Shown here: one piece after another, positions 4,079 through 50,489 of the stretch
Numbering within the stretch: the stretch's first letter is position 1
How the letters are laid out: each line of letters opens with the position of its first letter
Assembly (NCBI GenBank): GCA_051294905.1
Contig: CM119372.1
Location: forward strand, 28,522,001 to 28,586,000
From: Botryllus schlosseri
Taxonomy: Eukaryota
Reading direction: 5' to 3'
DNA: 64,000 nt
Notes under the pieces: model-generated
What the model was told of the DNA's origin: nothing
Database searches by the model: none
Seen by the model: only the letters and a program-made list of their open reading frames with translations
Program-made: the position numbers and the translations under genes

Positions 4079-7000
4079 AGTATTGATAACTAATTTACGG
4101 ATAGATGTGCAACAAGTGACTCACGATTGAATACGCCGAGATGCGTACTGATAAGCCGACAGAAAGCAGCATAATTGGTAGTCCTATAGCTCGCGACCCA
4201 AGCGTCCGAATAATTTGATATGTCGGTGTTTATCGAAAGCAAGTGTCGCACTGATTCCTAAAATACGAATTGAAATCTCGCCAGAGCAATAAAACTACTC
4301 CGAAATAGCCAGCAAAGGTTGATTGTTCTGAACAACGGGAGCGCGGCAACACAATGGCCAATGGCGTCAATCGAATGATCGGAACAATTCCAATTTTCAT
4401 ATTTTGGTGACTATTTTGGGTTCCTTTCATTGCCCTGGTATTCGTGCGGCCCCGGTCGTACTCTGAAATTCTAAATTTGGCCCTGCCATCGAAAAAGGTT
4501 GGGAACCACTGGCATAGAGGCTTGTCGAAATTCTAGTTTCAGATAGTTTCATGGCATGGAAGGTTAAGACTGTTGATAAGAAAAATATGAAATTCGAACT
4601 ATATATAGAGTAACAAGTATATGATTAAGACGTAAATCACGCGCAGTGCGAAAAAAATTCGGTCGACCGCTGCTTCGCGCCCGCCTTCTGATGCTTCCAC
4701 GCCCCCCCAGTTTGAGAACCACTGCGCCGGAGATTTCTTCGAATTTTTGAAATTATGTGCAAAAATAATTCTAATCTATAGCAAACGCTCAATAATCTAA
4801 ATCGGGCTCGATGTGAAGTTTGTACATTTGACAAATCAAAATTGCTCTCATGCCCGCAATCAATATCCCCCGCTATTCGCTTTACCCGACATATTGCGTG
4901 CCTTGCAGGCTAAATTCGGTTTTGCACAATACGTATATTGATCGCAGAGAAGAGCAGTGATGGAGATGCCTGTGTGACAATGCAGTTTTCAAATCCTCGT
5001 TGTCTTCCTAATCACAAGCGAGAAATGAACTCCTTAAGAAGTCATGATCATGTTCACGTTTACAAGTTCAAATTACAAACATACTCATCCAGGCATCCAC
5101 ATTGCGATTGTTACGTATCGTGCCGGCACCGCCGGTAAAATGTAGGCTCGGGGCGCAACGTTACGTTACAGGCGACGAATTTGAGAATTGAGAAGTAAAA
5201 TTTATTAATTCATATCAGTTAACAAATTTCCCCGCCTGTTGAGGGTATTATCCCGGTTTGTTGTAACTATAATTGAAATGCGGGTGGCTCTACCAGTAGC
5301 ACTATTGAGGTATTACTATCCTCACACGTGATATTACACGATATGCGTGGAAATGCTTTCGGCATTCTAGTATACGCCTCTACGCCTCCGTATTTGTTAG
5401 TGGCGATCGTGATTGGCCTCTTTGACGCGACGGTTAATTACATCGACAATGTGGTTGTGTGCAGACTTTAATGTCAAGCAAATCTTTGGAAATTAAGCGC
5501 AGCCCGAAGTTTAAACGAGATCGCAGCAGGCAAGTTATGTGGTAGCATGAGGTAATTGCTGAAAATTCAAAACCTCACACGGAAGCGGAGAAAGTTCTTC
5601 ATACGGCCTGCACTAAAATTTTGACAAAATGTCTGGGACCAAAGCTGAGGAAGAATTGAAAACGATGATACCGGTCGTAGACGTATTTGTGACATGTCCG
5701 CAGAGATAAAAGATGCCCTCATTTCTTTGAAGCAGAGCAAAGCTTACTTGACTACTCCGAAAAGGTAGAAGTACTTCGATCAGAGACGATCTCTGTACGA
5801 CTGTGGTTGCTGCTAAATATTCTGTTAGTTTGCCGGTGCTGTAGGCCAAAAAAAAGCTTAGAACTACTGTGCTAGTGTGCCGCGAACTATTTTTCACTTT
5901 CAAAGGTCGCAACGAGGTGAAAAGGGTTAATAACCACTGTACCAAACTATACACGAAATTCACCTCGCGTGATAAGTGAAAGCAAATTGATCTGCGATAG
6001 ATATGGGATCAAAAATATTTAGTAATATTTGATCCTGCTACAGCCTACTCTCGCACAGCATTAAACCCACAAATTTGAACCATGTATCTTCAGGAAACCA
6101 ACATTGACAGACAAACTCTTACGCTAGAATTCATTTACCTAGACCAGACCTGGGCAAAGTGTGACCCGCGGGCCAAATGCGACCCGTGAAGCTATTCTGT
6201 GTTGCCCACCAACGTATTTTCTACTTCTCATTCGGCCCACCGAGGAAAATAATTGCCACCCCTGACCTAGACGAAGAAAAATAAACCTCATGGGCACCGT
6301 ACGGATAACATACGGAATTTAGAGCTTGACGGCATCCGCAATATCTTACTTGAATATGTCGCTGCATCGAGAGAAAATACCGCAATTCAAATAAAAAAAA
6401 GTCAACAGAGCCTACCGAACGAACAACTAAAGACGTCTTTATCCATCTATCATGGATTCGTCCTATTTCCACCTGCTTCCAAAAGCAATTGATTTCTGCG
6501 CTCAGTGAGTGTTACGACACAGTTAAAACTATCATGATATATTCTGTTTGCGCGAAAAATTATCGAGATGACAGGTTTCGCGTCGTCAGGAAAAGGAGAA
6601 GCCGTTCGCACTTTCATATGTATGACTTGAAGTCGGTTTTTATCAAAACACGCCAACATAGTTTGTGCCAACAGCAGTACTTCGTGTACCAAGTGAAAGT
6701 AGTACACTGAAGTAAAGCGATCACTTCATATTTCGAAATTTTATGCTTATGACGTCATATTGGGTGATACAGTTTTTGATAAATAATGTTCTTCCAATTA
6801 TCTACTAGTTGCTAACAATTACCCCCGATGTGTGTCAGCCCAAAATACCCCGCTTTATTACAATATTAATATACTATTGAATTCCGTATTGTACAACGAA
6901 GTGTCTTGGTTACTTAGATACAACGCAATAATCGTTATCCGCCTACTGTTAAACAAGCTCCTAAAATCCGGTTGGCAAAATAATACAAAAGCCCTATTGT

Positions 7001-7581
7001 CTACTTCGTTTTTAATGTAATGACTAACATATGGAATCTAATGGTACATATTTCCTTAATATTAGAATATAAGGCGGCATCTTACAACGAATTTCACTCG
7101 TCTGTTTTATTCGACTGCTGTGTATGGTAAAAAATGTGCGCAGTAGCAATGTGTGTAATAGCAATAGTTTGAATAAAGGTTTGGCTATGTGATACATAGC
7201 TGAACTGAGTATTCAATGATAACTCAATAATTTGTGGTAGACGTTCGTTTTATATTCTTTCAATAATCTCAGAAGCTGTCGTTGTACTCAGTCACTCGGT
7301 TTGAAGTGGCATGCAGATATTTCTACTTATACTTCAAACTTGTCCAAATGCTAAATTCGTCATTAGTCGATGTTCATGTTCTTCAAGTTTATCGGTCATC
7401 AACATAGTTTACTGTCAGCATTTCTTATGGAGTGGACTATGCCGGCCCTATACATTTCACCTGCACGGTGTACATACACGACAGTGTCAATTATCTCATT
7501 TATCCCTCTATCTCCAAGACAACTCCATTGTTTTATCACGCATACAGATAGGAGATTTGAATTTGAAAAATAACTGACGAT

Positions 7582-8795
7582 ATGAGGGGACTAGTACTTG
7601 CAACTTTTCTGGTGCTGGCTATGGTGACATCGAGCCATGCATGGTTTCATGTTCACTTTCATATTGGGTAAGATTTATCAATATACATATCTTCTATCAT
7701 AATTGATCTTTGGAAACGCCTCGCACATTGCTCCAAACGCCTATTCCATTCCATATAACAGATTTATGACATCATCAATATTGGTCGGTCGTTTAAATTC
7801 ACTAATAAGCGACCCTCACGTTCCGACATAACCCATATGCGATTGCAAGATCGAGCGGAAGTTGAAAGCAAAATGAATAGGCGCTGTGTGACGCTTTATT
7901 TACTCCGTTTCGTTATAAGGCCGGAAACGATTGACCTGACTCCCCGCACTTACGATCTTAATTCTTATTATGACACTATTACTTCAATCGAGTCGCAGTG
8001 ATTCGTGACATTGGCAAAATACTTTTCCATTTTCCATAGGTGCTATTAATGTCCACTTAATTTACTAGGGTTAATGTTTGCTTACTTTGCAGGGATGAAG
8101 CGGGAGAGCCTGGCGAACATGAAAAGCCGGAGGAGCACGAGGGTGAGAGGCATGAAGATGTTCATTTTCACTGGCGTCCTGCGAGTAGGAGGTAAGATTC
8201 AACGATATATAAATATGTGAATTGTACCATTGTACAAAGATTGTATCGGTCGAAACATCTCGTACATTACCTTAGATGCCTCATCTATTCCTCGCACCAG
8301 ATATAGTCACCGTCAATATGATTTGGTATAGGTCACTGACGACCAACCGAGGGATCGTCGGCGCATTCTGGTAAACCAGAAGTTGAAACTAAAATCAGAG
8401 GGAGCTCTGTGACATGTTATTTGCCTTGTTCTGTTATCAGACTGGAAGAGATTGTGCTACATCGTCTTAGAAACTCATAATTTTCATCATTGAGGCATTA
8501 TCATATTAAAGGCACGCGAGTTTCGGGACATTGGCTTAATACTTTTGCGCATTCCAGATGTCAATGTGTCCACCTAATTTACGAGGATCACTGTTTGCTT
8601 ACTTTGTAGAGACGAAGAGGGAAAGCACGAGGAGCACGAACATGAGAGGCATGAAGATATTTCAGGTATTATTCCATATTGTTCCTAAAGATAATGCAAA
8701 TCCATCATTTTCGCTATATCCTATTCACAGCCATGCTGAGGGATATCATCCAGCAACATCGTAACGACGGGAATGCGGCAAACTCCTTTCAGTAG
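7582..8795 (+). CDS. Secreted His-rich peptide precursor, plicatamide-like, 101 aa; exons 7582-7667, 8093-8191, 8610-8665, 8731-8795
   Basis: Manual splicing gives GT-AG introns (GTAAGA, GTAAGA, GTATTA donors; TTTGCAG, TTTGTAG, TTCACAG acceptors) in phases 2,2,1 and an open frame: MRGLVLATFLVLAMVTSSHA-WFHVHFHIG-DEAGEPGEHEKPEEHEGERHEDVHFHWRPASRR-DEEGKHEEHEHERHEDISAMLRDIIQQHRNDGNAANSFQ*. It has a hydrophobic signal peptide ending S-H-A. The last exon is the least certain. Confidence 0.8.
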
Positions 8796-8953
8796 GAAGA
8801 ATGCAGTCTTGATTTAATATCTCAAACCGGCGCAATCATCGGATGTGATTAAGAATAGAAAAAATACATCATGTAATTCAAAGCAACGTGATATATTTGC
8901 TTCGTACCTTCGGGTGTTCTATGAAGGACTGAAATAGTTCTGAAATGGGTTAT

Positions 8954-8956
<3 letters not shown>

Positions 8957-8984
<28 letters not shown>
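8957..8984. repeat. (AG)n microsatellite
   Basis: Perfect dinucleotide run. Confidence 0.95.
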
Positions 8985-8988
<4 letters not shown>

Positions 8989-9150
8989 TATTTATTTTTA
9001 TTCAACCGAAATACCCAACAAACTGGCAGCAATAACAGTGGTACAGAAAATAGGCACGTACTGGATACGGTACTAAATAGGAATGGTCGATCCGACCTTT
9101 CATATAAACTATATAGTCTGATCCCACCCGCCTCAAACATGCCTCTACAC

Positions 9151-10229
9151 CAGGGGTGAGCAAACTACGGCCCTACACCGTTCTGTGCGGCCCGCGAGAG
9201 TCTAAAGAAAGTTTTTTTAAATATTGATAAAATGCAGTGGTTCTCAAATTTGGAAGCGTAAAAGCATCAGAAGTGGGCGCGAAGCTGAGCTCAACTGAAA
9301 AAAATGTTCGCGCTCCGCGCGATTTACCAACAATTTCATGATTCTTGCTCTGTATTTAGTTTGAATTTCACATTTAAAAATCTCTCATCCATAGTCGTAA
9401 CCTTCCATGCTATCAAACTATCCGTTAGGTTTGCTAGCAACCTTGTTGCGTCTTGTGATATGGTGGTGAGGGGTCGCGAAATCTTTCATCATTATAAGGG
9501 GGAGGGGGCGTATCTTAATAAGTTTGAGAACCACTGTTGTAAGGTAAATACTTCCTATATTATTTTTGATGTTTAATTTCTGGCGTGACAGCTTGAACTC
9601 AAGGCCCACACAGTTTGAAAGGTTTCAACTGCTAAACATCACAGATATCCTAAACGAGATTGACATAATTCGGATCACGAGTAGAATTTCAGATTGGCCA
9701 CTCCAGTTTTATTTATTTTAGTGATGTGCTTATAAAAAACGATTCGCACGTATCTTAGGTAGATTCGTTCTCTGTATGCGTAGAATTGGGGCATTTATAT
9801 TTTATCTACACATAGTAAAAGCGTGTTTGAAGCTACTATGGTTATGATTCTGTGAGCATTGTGTGTCCTGGAACTGAACCAAAAGAGAAATTAGTAAATC
9901 TATGAACAGATCGCTGCTCACAGATTTAAATTTCAATCCTGTTCTAAGAATCGGGACAACCGACTTTCATCTCTATAGTTTTGACAAATTGGTTATTGAG
10001 CTCGACCAGACTATGAAATCTCGCCACTCTCTTTCTGACGCGTGTACGATATCACCAAAGCAATGATTGGTTTGTTTCAAATAAGCACATATATTATCTC
10101 CATGTCCTCACTATATAATCAAATACCAATATTGCGTTTTGGTTTATAGTCCCATTTTATATAGTGCGGCCCGCGAATGGATTCAGATGTTGAATGCGGC
10201 CCGCGAGCTTAAAAGTTTGCCCATCCCTG
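9151..10229. mobile_element. Non-autonomous hAT-like element containing a nested CAGTGGTTCTCAAA MITE (~9235-9536)
   Basis: TIRs CAGGGGTGAGCAAACT / AGTTTGCCCATCCCTG; TSD CTCTACAC / TTCTACAC (7/8). Confidence 0.7.
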
Positions 10230-23139: not shown

Positions 23140-24505
23140 ATGGAAAAAAAATCACTCATCAAGCGACGTTACACTGGAAAGGCATTACAGATGGTGGCAG
23201 TGATTCTGACGATGAAGAACGTTCTACTGCAGCAACTTCTGCTACCATGTGATAAATGAGCTCGGATGAATCCTCTTCACCCGATGAATCTGATGAAGAT
23301 TCCTCAATCGTTTTTTCAAAAGTTGAAAAAGGAAAAACACCGGGTCATATTGTATGTAGACCGCATGAACCGCAACGAAAATCTATCTGGAAAACAATTC
23401 AAGGTGAAAAGATCCCTTGCTACTAATTTCCTATGTGGAAGGCAGAATTGCTCGACAGTGACTACTCTATTTCTTCTCCGCACACATATTTCGAATATCT
23501 TGTTGGAGCGGAATTGCTGGACAGGATTGTTAATGAGAGCAATTTATTTGCTGTTCAAACTAATCCAACGAAGGCAATACACATGACCAGAGATGATTTT
23601 GAAAAATTCTTGGGATGTTGCATGCATATGTCTATCGTAAAAATGCGAAGATCCTATATGTACTGGGCCAATGATACTAGATATGATAAAGTTTCTGATA
23701 TCATGTCCCAAAATCGATGGAAGCAAATCAAATCTTTCTTGCTCATTGTTCATCCCGCATAAGGTGATTTTATGCAGTAGGAACTGTGCGATCAAACAGA
23801 CTGTCTGGCTGACAATTCAGTATTGGCACTGACAGCAGGACAAGAAGGAGAGGGAGATTTGAAGTAATGGAAGTTTCTCTGGACGGCGTTAGTATTCAGG
23901 CAGTAAAGTGGTATGACAATCGCAGTGTGCTATTGGCCAGTATCTTTGTCGAAGCAAATCATGTTAGGAAAATTAAAAGATGGCACAGGAGACGAAGTAA
24001 CGCTCACAGGTGGACTACCCATTCATTATCGAACAGTACAATTCATTTATGGGTGAGGTTGATCTTCTGGATGCCTATTTGGCTTATTACAGAACATGTA
24101 TCCGCTCAAAAAAATATCACATGTAATTGTACTTTCATGTGTCGTCAATAGTTAGTTGCTGTACAGGCGGGACTGGGATTTTCTGCAATTTCCGAAATAG
24201 AAGCAAAAAGGTCTGCTTGCTTCCAAATTATATGCAGAATACCTGGTAAAATATGGAAAATTAGTGACCGGAGAAAAAGAGGGTGGCCATCCCTCTGTAT
24301 CCAGCAGGAGTATCATAAGACAAGGAAAAGAGGACCAATAAAGCCCACCCAAACGTGACCAAGTGGGTCACACGCCTGCCGTGGACACCAGGCAGAGATA
24401 CAAGAGACAAACCTGCAAAGAGCAATCGGCTATAAAATGTGTCAAATGTCATGTACATCTGTGCCTGAACAAAAACTCTAACTGTTTTGCTTATTTTCAA
24501 CAATA
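23140..24505 (+). pseudogene. piggyBac (PGBD-like) transposase pseudogene, frameshifted and internally deleted
   Basis: Fragments SPHTYFEYLVGAELLDRIVNESNLFA...YW...MSQNRWKQIKSFL, KWYDNRSVLLAS, YNSFMGEVDLLDAYLAYY and C-terminal CVKCHVHLCLNKNSNCF are characteristic piggyBac motifs. Confidence 0.9.
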
Positions 24506-40087: not shown

Positions 40088-40729
40088 GATGCTAAAATAA
40101 GTCGTTGGAAGGGTATACCGAAAGCCTCTTTGCACTGCGGGTGAACTTATCGCATAGCATTTCACAGCTCTGCGGCGTAATTTAACTGTCTAGCGCTGTG
40201 GACGGTCCATTTTGTCTGCTAATTGGGGGCCATAAACGACCGAGTGAAACAAATAGTTTGGGGTATATGCGGATATGATTAGGAAACAACACGCTGAATG
40301 ACTTGGGAATCTCAACTCGACAAAGGATCGTCGCGACGGGGGACCTGCAAAAACGTCCCAGACACCCTGAATCCCGCTAATGTAGGCGCTGACAGAGCAT
40401 AATTTTCCCTGCTACGGGTGTAATCTAGATAAAGCATGATTTTTTCCTATATGTCTGTAATCTATATAAAGCATAGTGCTCCCTAGATACCAGGCGTGGG
40501 GGATCACGAATCACCAAGTGTTTTTATACATTGAGAAATGATCGAGCTATTTTTATACCCGAGGTAGTCATTCAGAGACATGCAGGCTTATTCGTATAGA
40601 CTCTCTATAGTGTAGCATCTATCTGATTCGGGGATAAGTAAATGCTTTGTCCACGCTCAAACTGAGGATGCTTTGAATTTGTATCTTACTCATGTTATTA
40701 TTCACCCTCCAGGAAATATTTATAGTACG

Positions 40730-41236
40730 ATGGAGTCTAATAAATGCCGTATTTGTGCGCGGGAATTCACAAGAAAATGCAACCTCAAAAGTCATTTACT
40801 ATGGCACACTGGTGTTAAAGAACATGAATGCTTGATATGCGGACGATGGTTTCTTGCCAAACAGAACCTACATGCCCATTTGGCTGTACACTCGGGGGTG
40901 AAACCGTACGATTGTGAAGTATGTGGTCGTTTTTTTGCCCGAAAATACACCATGGAAGTCCATTTGGCCACACATACTGGCGTAGAAAGATTCGAGTGTG
41001 GGGTGTGTGGTAAGCTTCTGTCGGGGAAGAATGGGCTGAAAAAACACCTAGAAACACACTTTGGAATTGGAAAATACTCGTGTCAGGTGTGTGGGAGACT
41101 GTTTCCTCACCAATGCGGGTTAGAAACTCACCTCCAGGCTCCCGTGGGACTGAGAAAATATCCATGCGGTGTTTGCGGTAAAGCTTTTGGTTCGCAAGCA
41201 AATCTTCACAGACACGAGACTACTCCCTTTGTGTGA
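40730..41236 (+). CDS. Tandem C2H2 zinc-finger protein (168 aa from ATG 40730); four canonical fingers plus two lacking the last His
   Basis: Repeats of CxxCx3Fx5Lx2Hx3H with TGVKEHE / SGVKPYD / TGVERFE linkers. AATAAA at ~41265. Possible acceptor CCCTCCAG just upstream. Confidence 0.9.
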   Translation: MESNKCRICAREFTRKCNLKSHLLWHTGVKEHECLICGRWFLAKQNLHAHLAVHSGVKPYDCEVCGRFFARKYTMEVHLATHTGVERFECGVCGKLLSGKNGLKKHLETHFGIGKYSCQVCGRLFPHQCGLETHLQAPVGLRKYPCGVCGKAFGSQANLHRHETTPFV

Positions 41237-49545: not shown

Positions 49546-50489
49546 TGCAATAGTCAGCTAACATATGTAAGCTCCAATCTACACTGGTATCTTACCCTCA
49601 TCATCTTCAGATATATTGGGGGATGCTTACTCCTTGCCCATCGCTGACCAGGCCAAGGTTTTCCGGGAAATATTTAGATATGGTAGCTTTTTCTAATGTC
49701 TGCTGTCCGACATAAACATATGGCAGGGGTTCTCAACCCGCGGCCCGCAGACGTATATTTTATGGCCCGCGACATCTTTCATTATAAACGCAATTACTAA
49801 TGTTCATTATAAACGCAATTACTAATGACACGGTATTGTTACAAATTAATTTAGATACTTAGCTCTTTTATCGCACCGTCTCTGTTTCGTTTGATTACTC
49901 ATTCTTGAAGACAGTGGTTCTCAAACTGGGGGCACGCGCCCTCTTTGGTGCGTGAAGCATCTGAAGGGGGCGCGAAGGTGCGGTCAACTGAAAAAAATTT
50001 CGCGCTGCGCGCAATTTATCCCTAATTCACTGTTATTTCTCTGTGTATAGTCCGAATTTCATATTTGAGAATTCTCTGATCAACGGCTATAACCTTCCAT
50101 GCCATCAAACTAGCCGTTTGTATTGCTAGCATTCTGGTTGCATTTTGTTATATGACGATAAGGGGGCACGAAATTTTTCCCTATCAAAAAGAGGGGGGGC
50201 GTGACTAAAAAATGTTTGAGAACCACTGCTTCAATGTGCTCTCGTTTCTTGATATATGCTCGACTTCAGATTGTTATTGTTTTGAATCATTATTCGGCTG
50301 GACTTTGGTTCAAGAGAATCCCGCTTCTTAGTAGGCCTTTTAAAGAGTGTTTGACTCACTGCGAACGGTTGTTGAGATTGCCGACGACGTTACAGACGCA
50401 TCGTTTAAAATTGCTTCGAACATCGCTAAACCCAAGAAATCTGATATAGAAGGTGTGATTTCAATAAAATCGTAACATACTTTGCGAAT

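Follow-up and report, generated by a model that had tools for sequence, protein, structure and literature searches.

Does the ascidian Botryllus schlosseri encode, in an ordinary gene, precursors for short histidine- and aromatic-rich peptides of the plicatamide type, and if so, what would such a precursor release? The question is raised by a locus at positions 7582-8795, forward strand, of the window analysed here, a stretch of 64,000 nucleotides (64 kb) corresponding to C2:28522001-28586000 of the 495.5-Mb assembly GCA_051294905.1 (C2 being contig CM119372.1). An initial annotation of the window had placed there a split gene for a secreted precursor with a 20-residue leader, the motif WFHVHFHIG, two acidic His/Glu-rich stretches and a second core-like motif, VHFHWRPASRR, and had assigned it to the gene family behind plicatamide. 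Plicatamide, F-F-H-L-H-F-H-dehydrodopamine, comes from haemocytes of Styela plicata and causes K+ efflux from S. aureus (PMC3039461, PMC8719109). We find that the gene is real, spliced and abundantly transcribed from four exons, that it is one of six full copies whose plicatamide-like core stands directly behind the predicted leader, and that, although this is not plicatamide's own gene, its family is probably of the kind to which that gene belongs.

Joining exons 7582-7667, 8093-8191, 8610-8665 and 8731-8795 on the forward strand gives an open frame of 101 codons, from an ATG at 7582 to a stop codon at 8793-8795, in which the leader, WFHVHFHIG, both acidic stretches and VHFHWRPASRR all lie where they had been annotated. 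All three introns run from GT to AG (GTAAGA..TTGCAG for intron 1, GTAAGA..TTGTAG for intron 2 and GTATTA..TCACAG for intron 3). Because the longest uninterrupted open piece of the locus has only 44 codons, the gene is invisible to a scan for open reading frames (ORFs), as the initial annotation had remarked. The parts of the gene are as follows.

7482..7581, forward strand: proximal promoter and 5' untranslated region (UTR), a block kept among gene copies A, B, C and D (described below) in an alignment of the 400 bases upstream of the ATG
7582..7641, forward strand: predicted signal peptide, codons 1-20, called from hydropathy and invariance, with putative cleavage after Ala20
7642..7667, forward strand: core codons 21-28, W-F-H-V-H-F-H-I, and the first two bases of Gly29; end of exon 1
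7668..8092, forward strand: intron 1, 425 bases, GT..AG, joint 7666/8092 (cut +1)
8093..8191, forward strand: exon 2, acidic and His/Glu-rich, starting DEAGEPGEHEK and ending VHFHWRPASRR
8192..8609, forward strand: intron 2, 418 bases, GT..AG, joint 8189/8608 (cut +2)
8610..8665, forward strand: exon 3, which repeats the acidic His/Glu stretch in a shorter form
8666..8730, forward strand: intron 3, 65 bases, GT..AG, joint 8662/8728 (cut +3)
8731..8795, forward strand: coding part of exon 4, a 21-residue C-terminal tail with the conserved motif QQxRNDxNAAN, then the stop codon
8796..8886, forward strand: 3' UTR and poly(A) site; contigs end at 8882-8886, with poly(A) in X1

The dibasic pair R61-R62 that closes VHFHWRPASRR is encoded by 8187-8191 plus 8610, and is thus split over intron 2. 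Matching the window against itself shows that the segment spanning the end of intron 2 and the start of exon 3 duplicates, in diverged form, the one that spans the end of intron 1 and the start of exon 2 (8002-8162 versus 8522-8661, 70.8% over 161 columns).

Four runs provided RNA evidence over window positions 7000-9500: contigs from X1, X2 and X3, for which the label as RNA is a guess, and raw RNA sequencing (RNA-seq) reads from X23. The contigs of X1 (384 letters), X2 (459) and X3 (429) derive from three different studies, and each covers the four exons, joined precisely at the three predicted places. They start at 7532 (X1), 7516 (X2, the longest contig) and 7551 (X3), positions that are contig ends and not mapped transcription starts; those of X1 and X3 end at 8886, where X1 adds 11 A absent from the genome, a poly(A) tail. 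Of 12,895,792 records of X23, which make up about 6% of that run, 3441 fell on the locus, with 244, 351 and 291 reads across the junctions of introns 1, 2 and 3, respectively, an exon depth of ~260-440 per direction (roughly 300-fold per strand) and an intron depth of essentially zero (for intron 1, 0 in four of five bins and 0.02 in the fifth). The strand of the gene is assigned from the GT..AG boundaries and the poly(A) tail, the X23 library being unstranded. The splice junctions, for which the initial annotation had pointed to haemocyte RNA-seq, are therefore confirmed in all three contigs and in the reads of X23, in runs that carry no tissue label.

What would the protein be? The sliding-window hydropathy of the leader peaks at residues 3-10, and cleavage after Ala20 is predicted by the -3/-1 rule, because a hydrophobic core of residues 4-15 is followed by a five-residue c-region with Ser at -3 and Ala at -1 (S-H-A at -3 to -1). 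The chain that would follow Ala20 has 81 residues (~9.6 kDa), of which 13 His, 16 Glu and 6 Asp make up 43%, with a calculated pI of 5.3 and a net charge of about -12 at pH 7, the core included. Some 72 of these 81 residues form the acidic His/Glu-rich tail. The first eight residues, by calculation, carry a charge of 0.02 at pH 7 and 2.25 at pH 5.5, so the core is neutral at pH 7 and not cationic. As an extended strand it would have one face made of Trp and the three histidines and an opposite face of four residues, most of them hydrophobic, and if the leader is indeed removed after Ala20, the mature chain would begin NH2-W-[F/L]-H, an NH2-X-Y-His pattern.

The gene has close relatives in the same genome. 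DNA and exon-level protein searches of the assembly recovered six full copies on one contig within ~310 kb (C2:28.42-28.73 Mb), all six with an open frame, GT..AG introns and the motif.

C2:28423127, forward strand: full copy
C2:28451623, reverse strand: full copy
C2:28495438, forward strand: full copy, form B
C2:28529582, forward strand: full copy, form A, the window's own
C2:28627518, forward strand: full copy, form B
C2:28732518, forward strand: full copy, form A

A gene fragment at C2:28457733 has an in-frame stop and has lost an acceptor, and matching the window against itself revealed no second copy of the gene within its 64 kb. The six copies encode four distinct proteins, all of which continue DE[A/E]GEPGEHEK after the core.

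Form A: core WFHVHFHIG, two copies
Form B: core WLHVHFHFG, two copies
Form C: core WFHVHLHNCW, one copy
Form D: core WFHVHIHCG, one copy

The two A copies differ at 24 of 4351 bases. A and B share 98% DNA identity, and their four coding differences comprise two synonymous changes and two replacements, both of the latter within the nine-residue core (F2L and I8F in core numbering). Because these replacements leave the composition unchanged, the amidated octapeptides of A and B would be isobaric, with a predicted monoisotopic mass of 1120.5719 (1076.5126 for the D form and, as the free acid, 1377.6189 for the C form), and mass spectrometry alone would not separate them. The B/A pairs at 28495438/28529582 (34 kb apart) and 28627518/28732518 (105 kb apart) are near-identical, at 98-100% over 1351 bases, and their recurrence suggests either that a large segment was duplicated recently or that the assembly has retained one haplotype twice.

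The six assembled copies do not account for all that is transcribed. Of the 3441 reads of X23, 2927 were only 95-99% alike to the locus, many of them continuing into unlike sequence. One set matches as far as 7662, differs in five letters and rejoins at 8093, so that W-K replaces I-G in a translation read by eye; it is supported by five bridging reads and by a loose-end consensus of 145 reads (agreement 0.66). Other variants have different exon-2 and exon-4 ends. The animal of X23, another individual under the same species label, therefore expresses family variants beyond the assembled copies, and the assembly understates the size or the polymorphism of the family. The single genomic match to H-F-H-W-K-D-E, a pattern for the W-K variant that crosses an exon junction, was dismissed as chance, given 76 matches in the control.

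Comparison of the copies identifies the parts under constraint. In the leader, 18 of 20 residues are invariant among the four distinct copies, and in the core so are W21, H23, V24, H25 and H27 (W1, H3, V4, H5 and H7 of the core); positions 2, 6 and 8 vary, as does residue 29. The even positions of the core are mostly hydrophobic (F/L, V, F/L/I and I/F/C/N), with Asn in copy C, and position 8 reads I, I, F, F, N and C among the six copies. The most conserved part of the protein is thus its N-terminus and not its tail. Overall ratios of nonsynonymous to synonymous substitution (dN/dS, Nei-Gojobori, from small counts) are 0.38 for A-C, 0.40 for A-D and 0.25 for C-D; the acidic part of exon 2 gives 0.16-0.30 between diverged copies and exon 4 gives 4.24 (A-C), 1.02 (A-D) and 0.97 (C-D), these too from small counts. 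The family, including its acidic tail, is under purifying selection, and no copy has lost the C-terminal motif QQxRNDxNAAN. The second core of the initial annotation fared less well: VHFHW is specific to A and B and is not conserved in the others, which read VHEHL (C) and VHAHL (D), followed by a basic pair in the form of RR (A/B), RRK (C) or RTK (D). Upstream of the ATG, a block of ~100 bases is conserved in all four forms; at 7491-7506 and 7546-7551 it holds TTATCT/TTATCC and AGATAG, which we take to be GATA-like or TATA-like elements. TTATCT/TTATCC precedes position 7516, where the earliest contig begins, by ~10-25 bases.

How close is the core to plicatamide? The two are identical at F2, H3, H5, F6 and H7, and their differences at position 1, with W instead of F, and at position 4, with V instead of L, are conservative. 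Across the family the likeness extends to eight residues with His at 3, 5 and 7, an aromatic residue at 1 and an aliphatic one at 4, F or L at 2 and F, L or I at 6, with His at position 3 behind what would be a free N-terminus and, if amidated, an uncharged C-terminus. The pattern Ar-[F/L]-H-aliphatic-H-[F/L/I]-H (Ar, aromatic) occupies the predicted mature N-terminus in six of six copies, directly behind the leader, and the invariant residues of the family are largely those held in common with plicatamide. Back-translated, A-W-[F/L]-H-x-H-x-H occurs at seven places in the 495-Mb genome, compared with none in a reversed control, and six of the seven are these genes; the seventh was rejected as a member because it has no leader. 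Unlike plicatamide, the family has I, F, C or N at position 8 and never Tyr, and no end derived from 3,4-dihydroxyphenylalanine (DOPA) is therefore possible in it.

In the clavanins of Styela clava, Gly is directly followed by acidic residues. In their precursors a signal of 19 residues is followed by a propiece of 10, a mature part of 24 (Gly included) and a posterior peptide of 27, and the amidated product has 23 residues (PMC8719109), so a Gly directly before the extension, as in most copies here, is a known ascidian arrangement. Clavanin and clavaspirin are similarly His- and Phe-rich, with a leader (here a predicted one), a C-terminal extension (the removal of which is here a proposal) and a Gly after the active part, where five of six copies of the present family have Gly behind the putative active part. 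They differ in that no N-terminal propiece is present here, the active part would have 8-10 residues instead of 23, and the extension, of ~72 residues, is itself His-rich. Clavanin C begins NH2-X-X-His, as the predicted mature end of this family does, and this NH2-X-Y-His end forms a very stable square-planar Cu(II) complex of the amino-terminal Cu(II)- and Ni(II)-binding (ATCUN) type (PMC8424629). With cleavage after Ala20, all six copies would likewise place His 3 behind a free amine, as in the albumin-like NH2-Xaa-Xaa-His sites, and metal binding is predicted accordingly in form. Botryllin, made by morula cells, is a 37-residue mature peptide from a 158-residue pre-propeptide with a 23-residue signal (PMC9966394), and styelin and botryllin share with the predicted product here a signal peptide followed by a short mature peptide that is a minor part of its precursor. 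In contrast, the mature peptides of both are cationic helices of 32-37 residues, whereas the core here would be a neutral strand of eight alternating His and hydrophobic residues. An exon-1 profile search showed no similarity to clavanin or styelin precursors; no direct alignment to a clavanin precursor was made.

Taken together, these features lead us to a reading to which we give an even chance: the gene would encode a secreted antimicrobial-type precursor of the ascidian blood-cell host-defence kind, releasing a short N-terminal peptide that can be switched by pH and metal. Signal peptidase would cut after Ala20 and expose Trp21, and the alternating first eight residues, folded as a beta-strand, would set a tri-histidine face against a greasy face, which is plicatamide's design. 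The free N-terminus with His at position 3 would form an NH2-X-X-His (ATCUN-type) site for Cu(II) or Ni(II), and the three histidines would act as a pH switch, taking the calculated charge from ~0 at pH 7 to about +2.3 at pH 5.5. As pro-region, the ~72-residue His/Glu-rich tail would hold the membrane-active head in a soluble, harmless form inside storage granules, possibly metal-loaded. Proteolysis would separate the variable residues 8-10 from the conserved DE[A/E]GEPGE. The new C-terminus would be amidated where Gly is present, losing its carboxylate charge as plicatamide does by decarboxylation, and the freed peptide of 8-10 residues would insert into microbial membranes. Peptide release, amidation, copper binding, membrane action and a haemocyte origin are all predictions here.

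Several observations weigh against this host-defence reading. The core is not followed by a dibasic pair or by any other recognised processing site, the junctions being G-DE, W-DE and, in the RNA variant, K-DE. The Gly that the initial annotation had proposed as amidation donor is present in five of six copies and three of the four distinct forms, and is missing in copy C, which reads NCW, and in the RNA variant, which reads WK. The supposed spacer is constrained (the exon 2 ratios given above), which also fits a function of its own. The cleavage site after Ala20 is a rule-of-thumb prediction, and haemocyte expression would be an extrapolation, the RNA runs being free of tissue labels. Queries of exon size (words, profile, Pfam) found no relative in other species or libraries. 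As for plicatamide itself, Tyr occurs at position 8 in none of the six copies, one RNA variant having Trp there by eye, and FFHLHFHY is not encoded in the 495-Mb genome: allowing up to one mismatch yields one place, F-F-H-F-P-F-H-Y, a chance match. FFH[L/F]HFH has three exact genomic places, all of them low-complexity FFHFHFH, and none encodes FFHLHFH; two of the three were read in context and rejected as chance, one lying just after a stop and the other lacking a leader and meeting a stop four residues downstream. Genome-wide, FH[L/F]HFH is at chance level (43 places versus 49 in the control) and FHxHFH is near it (168 versus 121). Among 56 motif loci read in context, which cover 30 of the 43 places and 30 of the 168, Met plus a leader was found only at the gene's own locus. 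At C1:17507484, FHHHFH stands right after a hydrophobic stretch rich in Leu, Gly and Val, and the 30 residues displayed contain no Met; this motif could belong to an exon of a different protein, secreted or membrane-bound.

The absence of the exact plicatamide core from the genome, the lack of a cross-species link in the libraries searched and the ease with which His-rich proteins yield alternating His/hydrophobic runs would all agree with a likeness that is convergent or accidental, the protein having another extracellular role such as cross-linking of tunic or adhesive through His-metal bonds. We consider this unlikely, as every copy has the motif precisely at its predicted mature N-terminus, the motif's plicatamide-like positions are the invariant ones, and six of the seven genomic matches to its pattern, against none in the control, are these genes. 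A stronger contender, to which we accord a substantial minority share of belief, is that the whole 81-residue mature protein works as it is, as a secreted, disordered, His/Glu-rich binder of Zn, Cu, Ni or Fe, and that no octapeptide is released. Such a protein might buffer or store metal in blood or granules or withhold it from microbes, with NH2-W-x-H and H-x-H-x-H as a high-affinity site in which the invariant W1, H3, H5 and H7 of the core would be the metal ligands. The proportion of His, Glu and Asp (43% of mature residues, with 13 His and 16 Glu), purifying selection on the acidic region (dN/dS 0.16-0.30), the missing convertase site after the core and the high metal content of invertebrate haemocytes cited in PMC8424629 all speak for it. 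It is not obvious, however, what a soluble metal buffer would do with a head that has a hydrophobic face (F, V, F, I), the A and B proteins differ in the head only, and the conserved basic pair (RR, RRK, RTK) suggests that the chain is cleaved internally at least once; the pro-regions of antimicrobial precursors are conserved as well.

That same basic pair would be the processing site of a hormone- or neuropeptide-type precursor, in which a cut at R61-R62 released a C-terminal peptide of ~39 residues, or the tail, for signalling and the N-terminal motif was incidental. Although codons 61-62 are dibasic in A and B, copy C has RRK and QQxRNDxNAAN is kept in all copies, we find this account quite improbable: the site is RTK in copy D, exon 4 has a dN/dS of ~1 or above in all three diverged pairs (on small counts), conservation is highest at the N-terminus and not in the tail, and six recent tandem copies with very high read depth are typical of effector genes.

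Returning to the host-defence precursor, what does the family say of the origin of plicatamide? The initial annotation's assignment to a plicatamide family holds for the alternating core, for the layout of leader, core and anionic extension and for the existence of a paralogue family, and finds no support in residue 8 (never Tyr), in the search for FFHLHFH(Y) or in the second core, which is not conserved. Homologues with the conserved xFHxHFH core, on which that assignment leaned, exist as the six copies within this genome (x-[F/L]-H-V-H-[F/L/I]-H) and were not found in the libraries searched. A bolder proposal, which we put forward tentatively and think likelier wrong than right, is that this orphan cluster represents the ribosomal source of the plicatamide/tunichrome class: the core would be cut before DE[A/E]GEPGE and its last residue amidated or oxidatively decarboxylated, that residue being I, F, C or W here and Tyr in a plicatamide-producing species or allele. 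If true, this would settle in favour of the ribosomal route a question open since 2000. Plicatamide was listed in a review of non-ribosomal peptides in 2016 (PMC5078478), and tunichromes were placed under unidentified biosynthetic pathways in a review of 2023 (PMC10880069). The covered text of PMC3039461, PMC9966394, PMC10817596, PMC10608444, PMC8719109, PMC13518417 and PMC5078478 mentions no plicatamide gene or complementary DNA (cDNA), in agreement with the initial annotation, which was aware of no characterised plicatamide precursor gene; the original plicatamide reports lie outside that coverage. The strings WFHVHFH, FFHLHFH, FHVHFH, WLHVHFH and FHLHFH had no occurrence in the literature searched. 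The gene may thus be the first genetic handle on plicatamide-type peptides. With a plicatamide-like core behind a signal peptide in an expressed multi-copy gene, the question becomes open to simple experiments, and the family offers natural His/aromatic peptides of 8-10 residues with a predicted built-in copper site and pH switch.

Beyond this genome the family is an orphan in the libraries searched, where relatives were sought with exon-sized queries only and sensitivity was accordingly low. Word-index searches of longer proteins with the open frames of exons 2 and 4, which included 11 and 25 intron-derived residues, gave no match. An exon-1 profile built from the four copies returned two marginal matches (E ~3e-4) among 1.84 billion representatives, both of them translated repeats and both rejected. 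Pfam found no family at cut-off in the exon pieces, CaATP_NAI being rejected at 14.9 bits against a cut-off of 25, and the unnamed bacterial clusters returned by the ESM Atlas, at or below 0.90 and with low recognition, were rejected as well.

The remainder of the window was surveyed by a Pfam scan of 20 of its 21 ORFs of at least 110 codons, the omitted one overlapping the zinc-finger ORF on the other strand. The scan identified a piece of a piggyBac-type transposase at 23427-23762 (DDE_Tnp_1_7, E 1.2e-17) and, at 40616-41236, an ORF that encodes several zinc fingers of the C2H2 type; among the 20 scanned ORFs, no amidating, hydroxylating or halogenating enzyme was found. Downstream of the gene, ~60 bases past the poly(A) site, lies a (GA)n microsatellite (8949-8985), where reads are cut. 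It is followed by a dispersed repeat (9100-9435) that matches 4542-4725 and 49955-50179 at 73-78% identity and is probably a transcribed repeat family, as it is covered by X1 contigs to a depth of up to ~50. Between ~53.7 and 61.6 kb, chance tblastn matches and a motif match recur in mirrored pairs (53758/61576, 54636/60698, 55955/59379 and 57101/58232), a sign that the window's AT-rich end (GC content 0.35-0.39) carries a large inverted duplication. Similar paired matches link ~32-37 kb with ~44-48 kb of the window.

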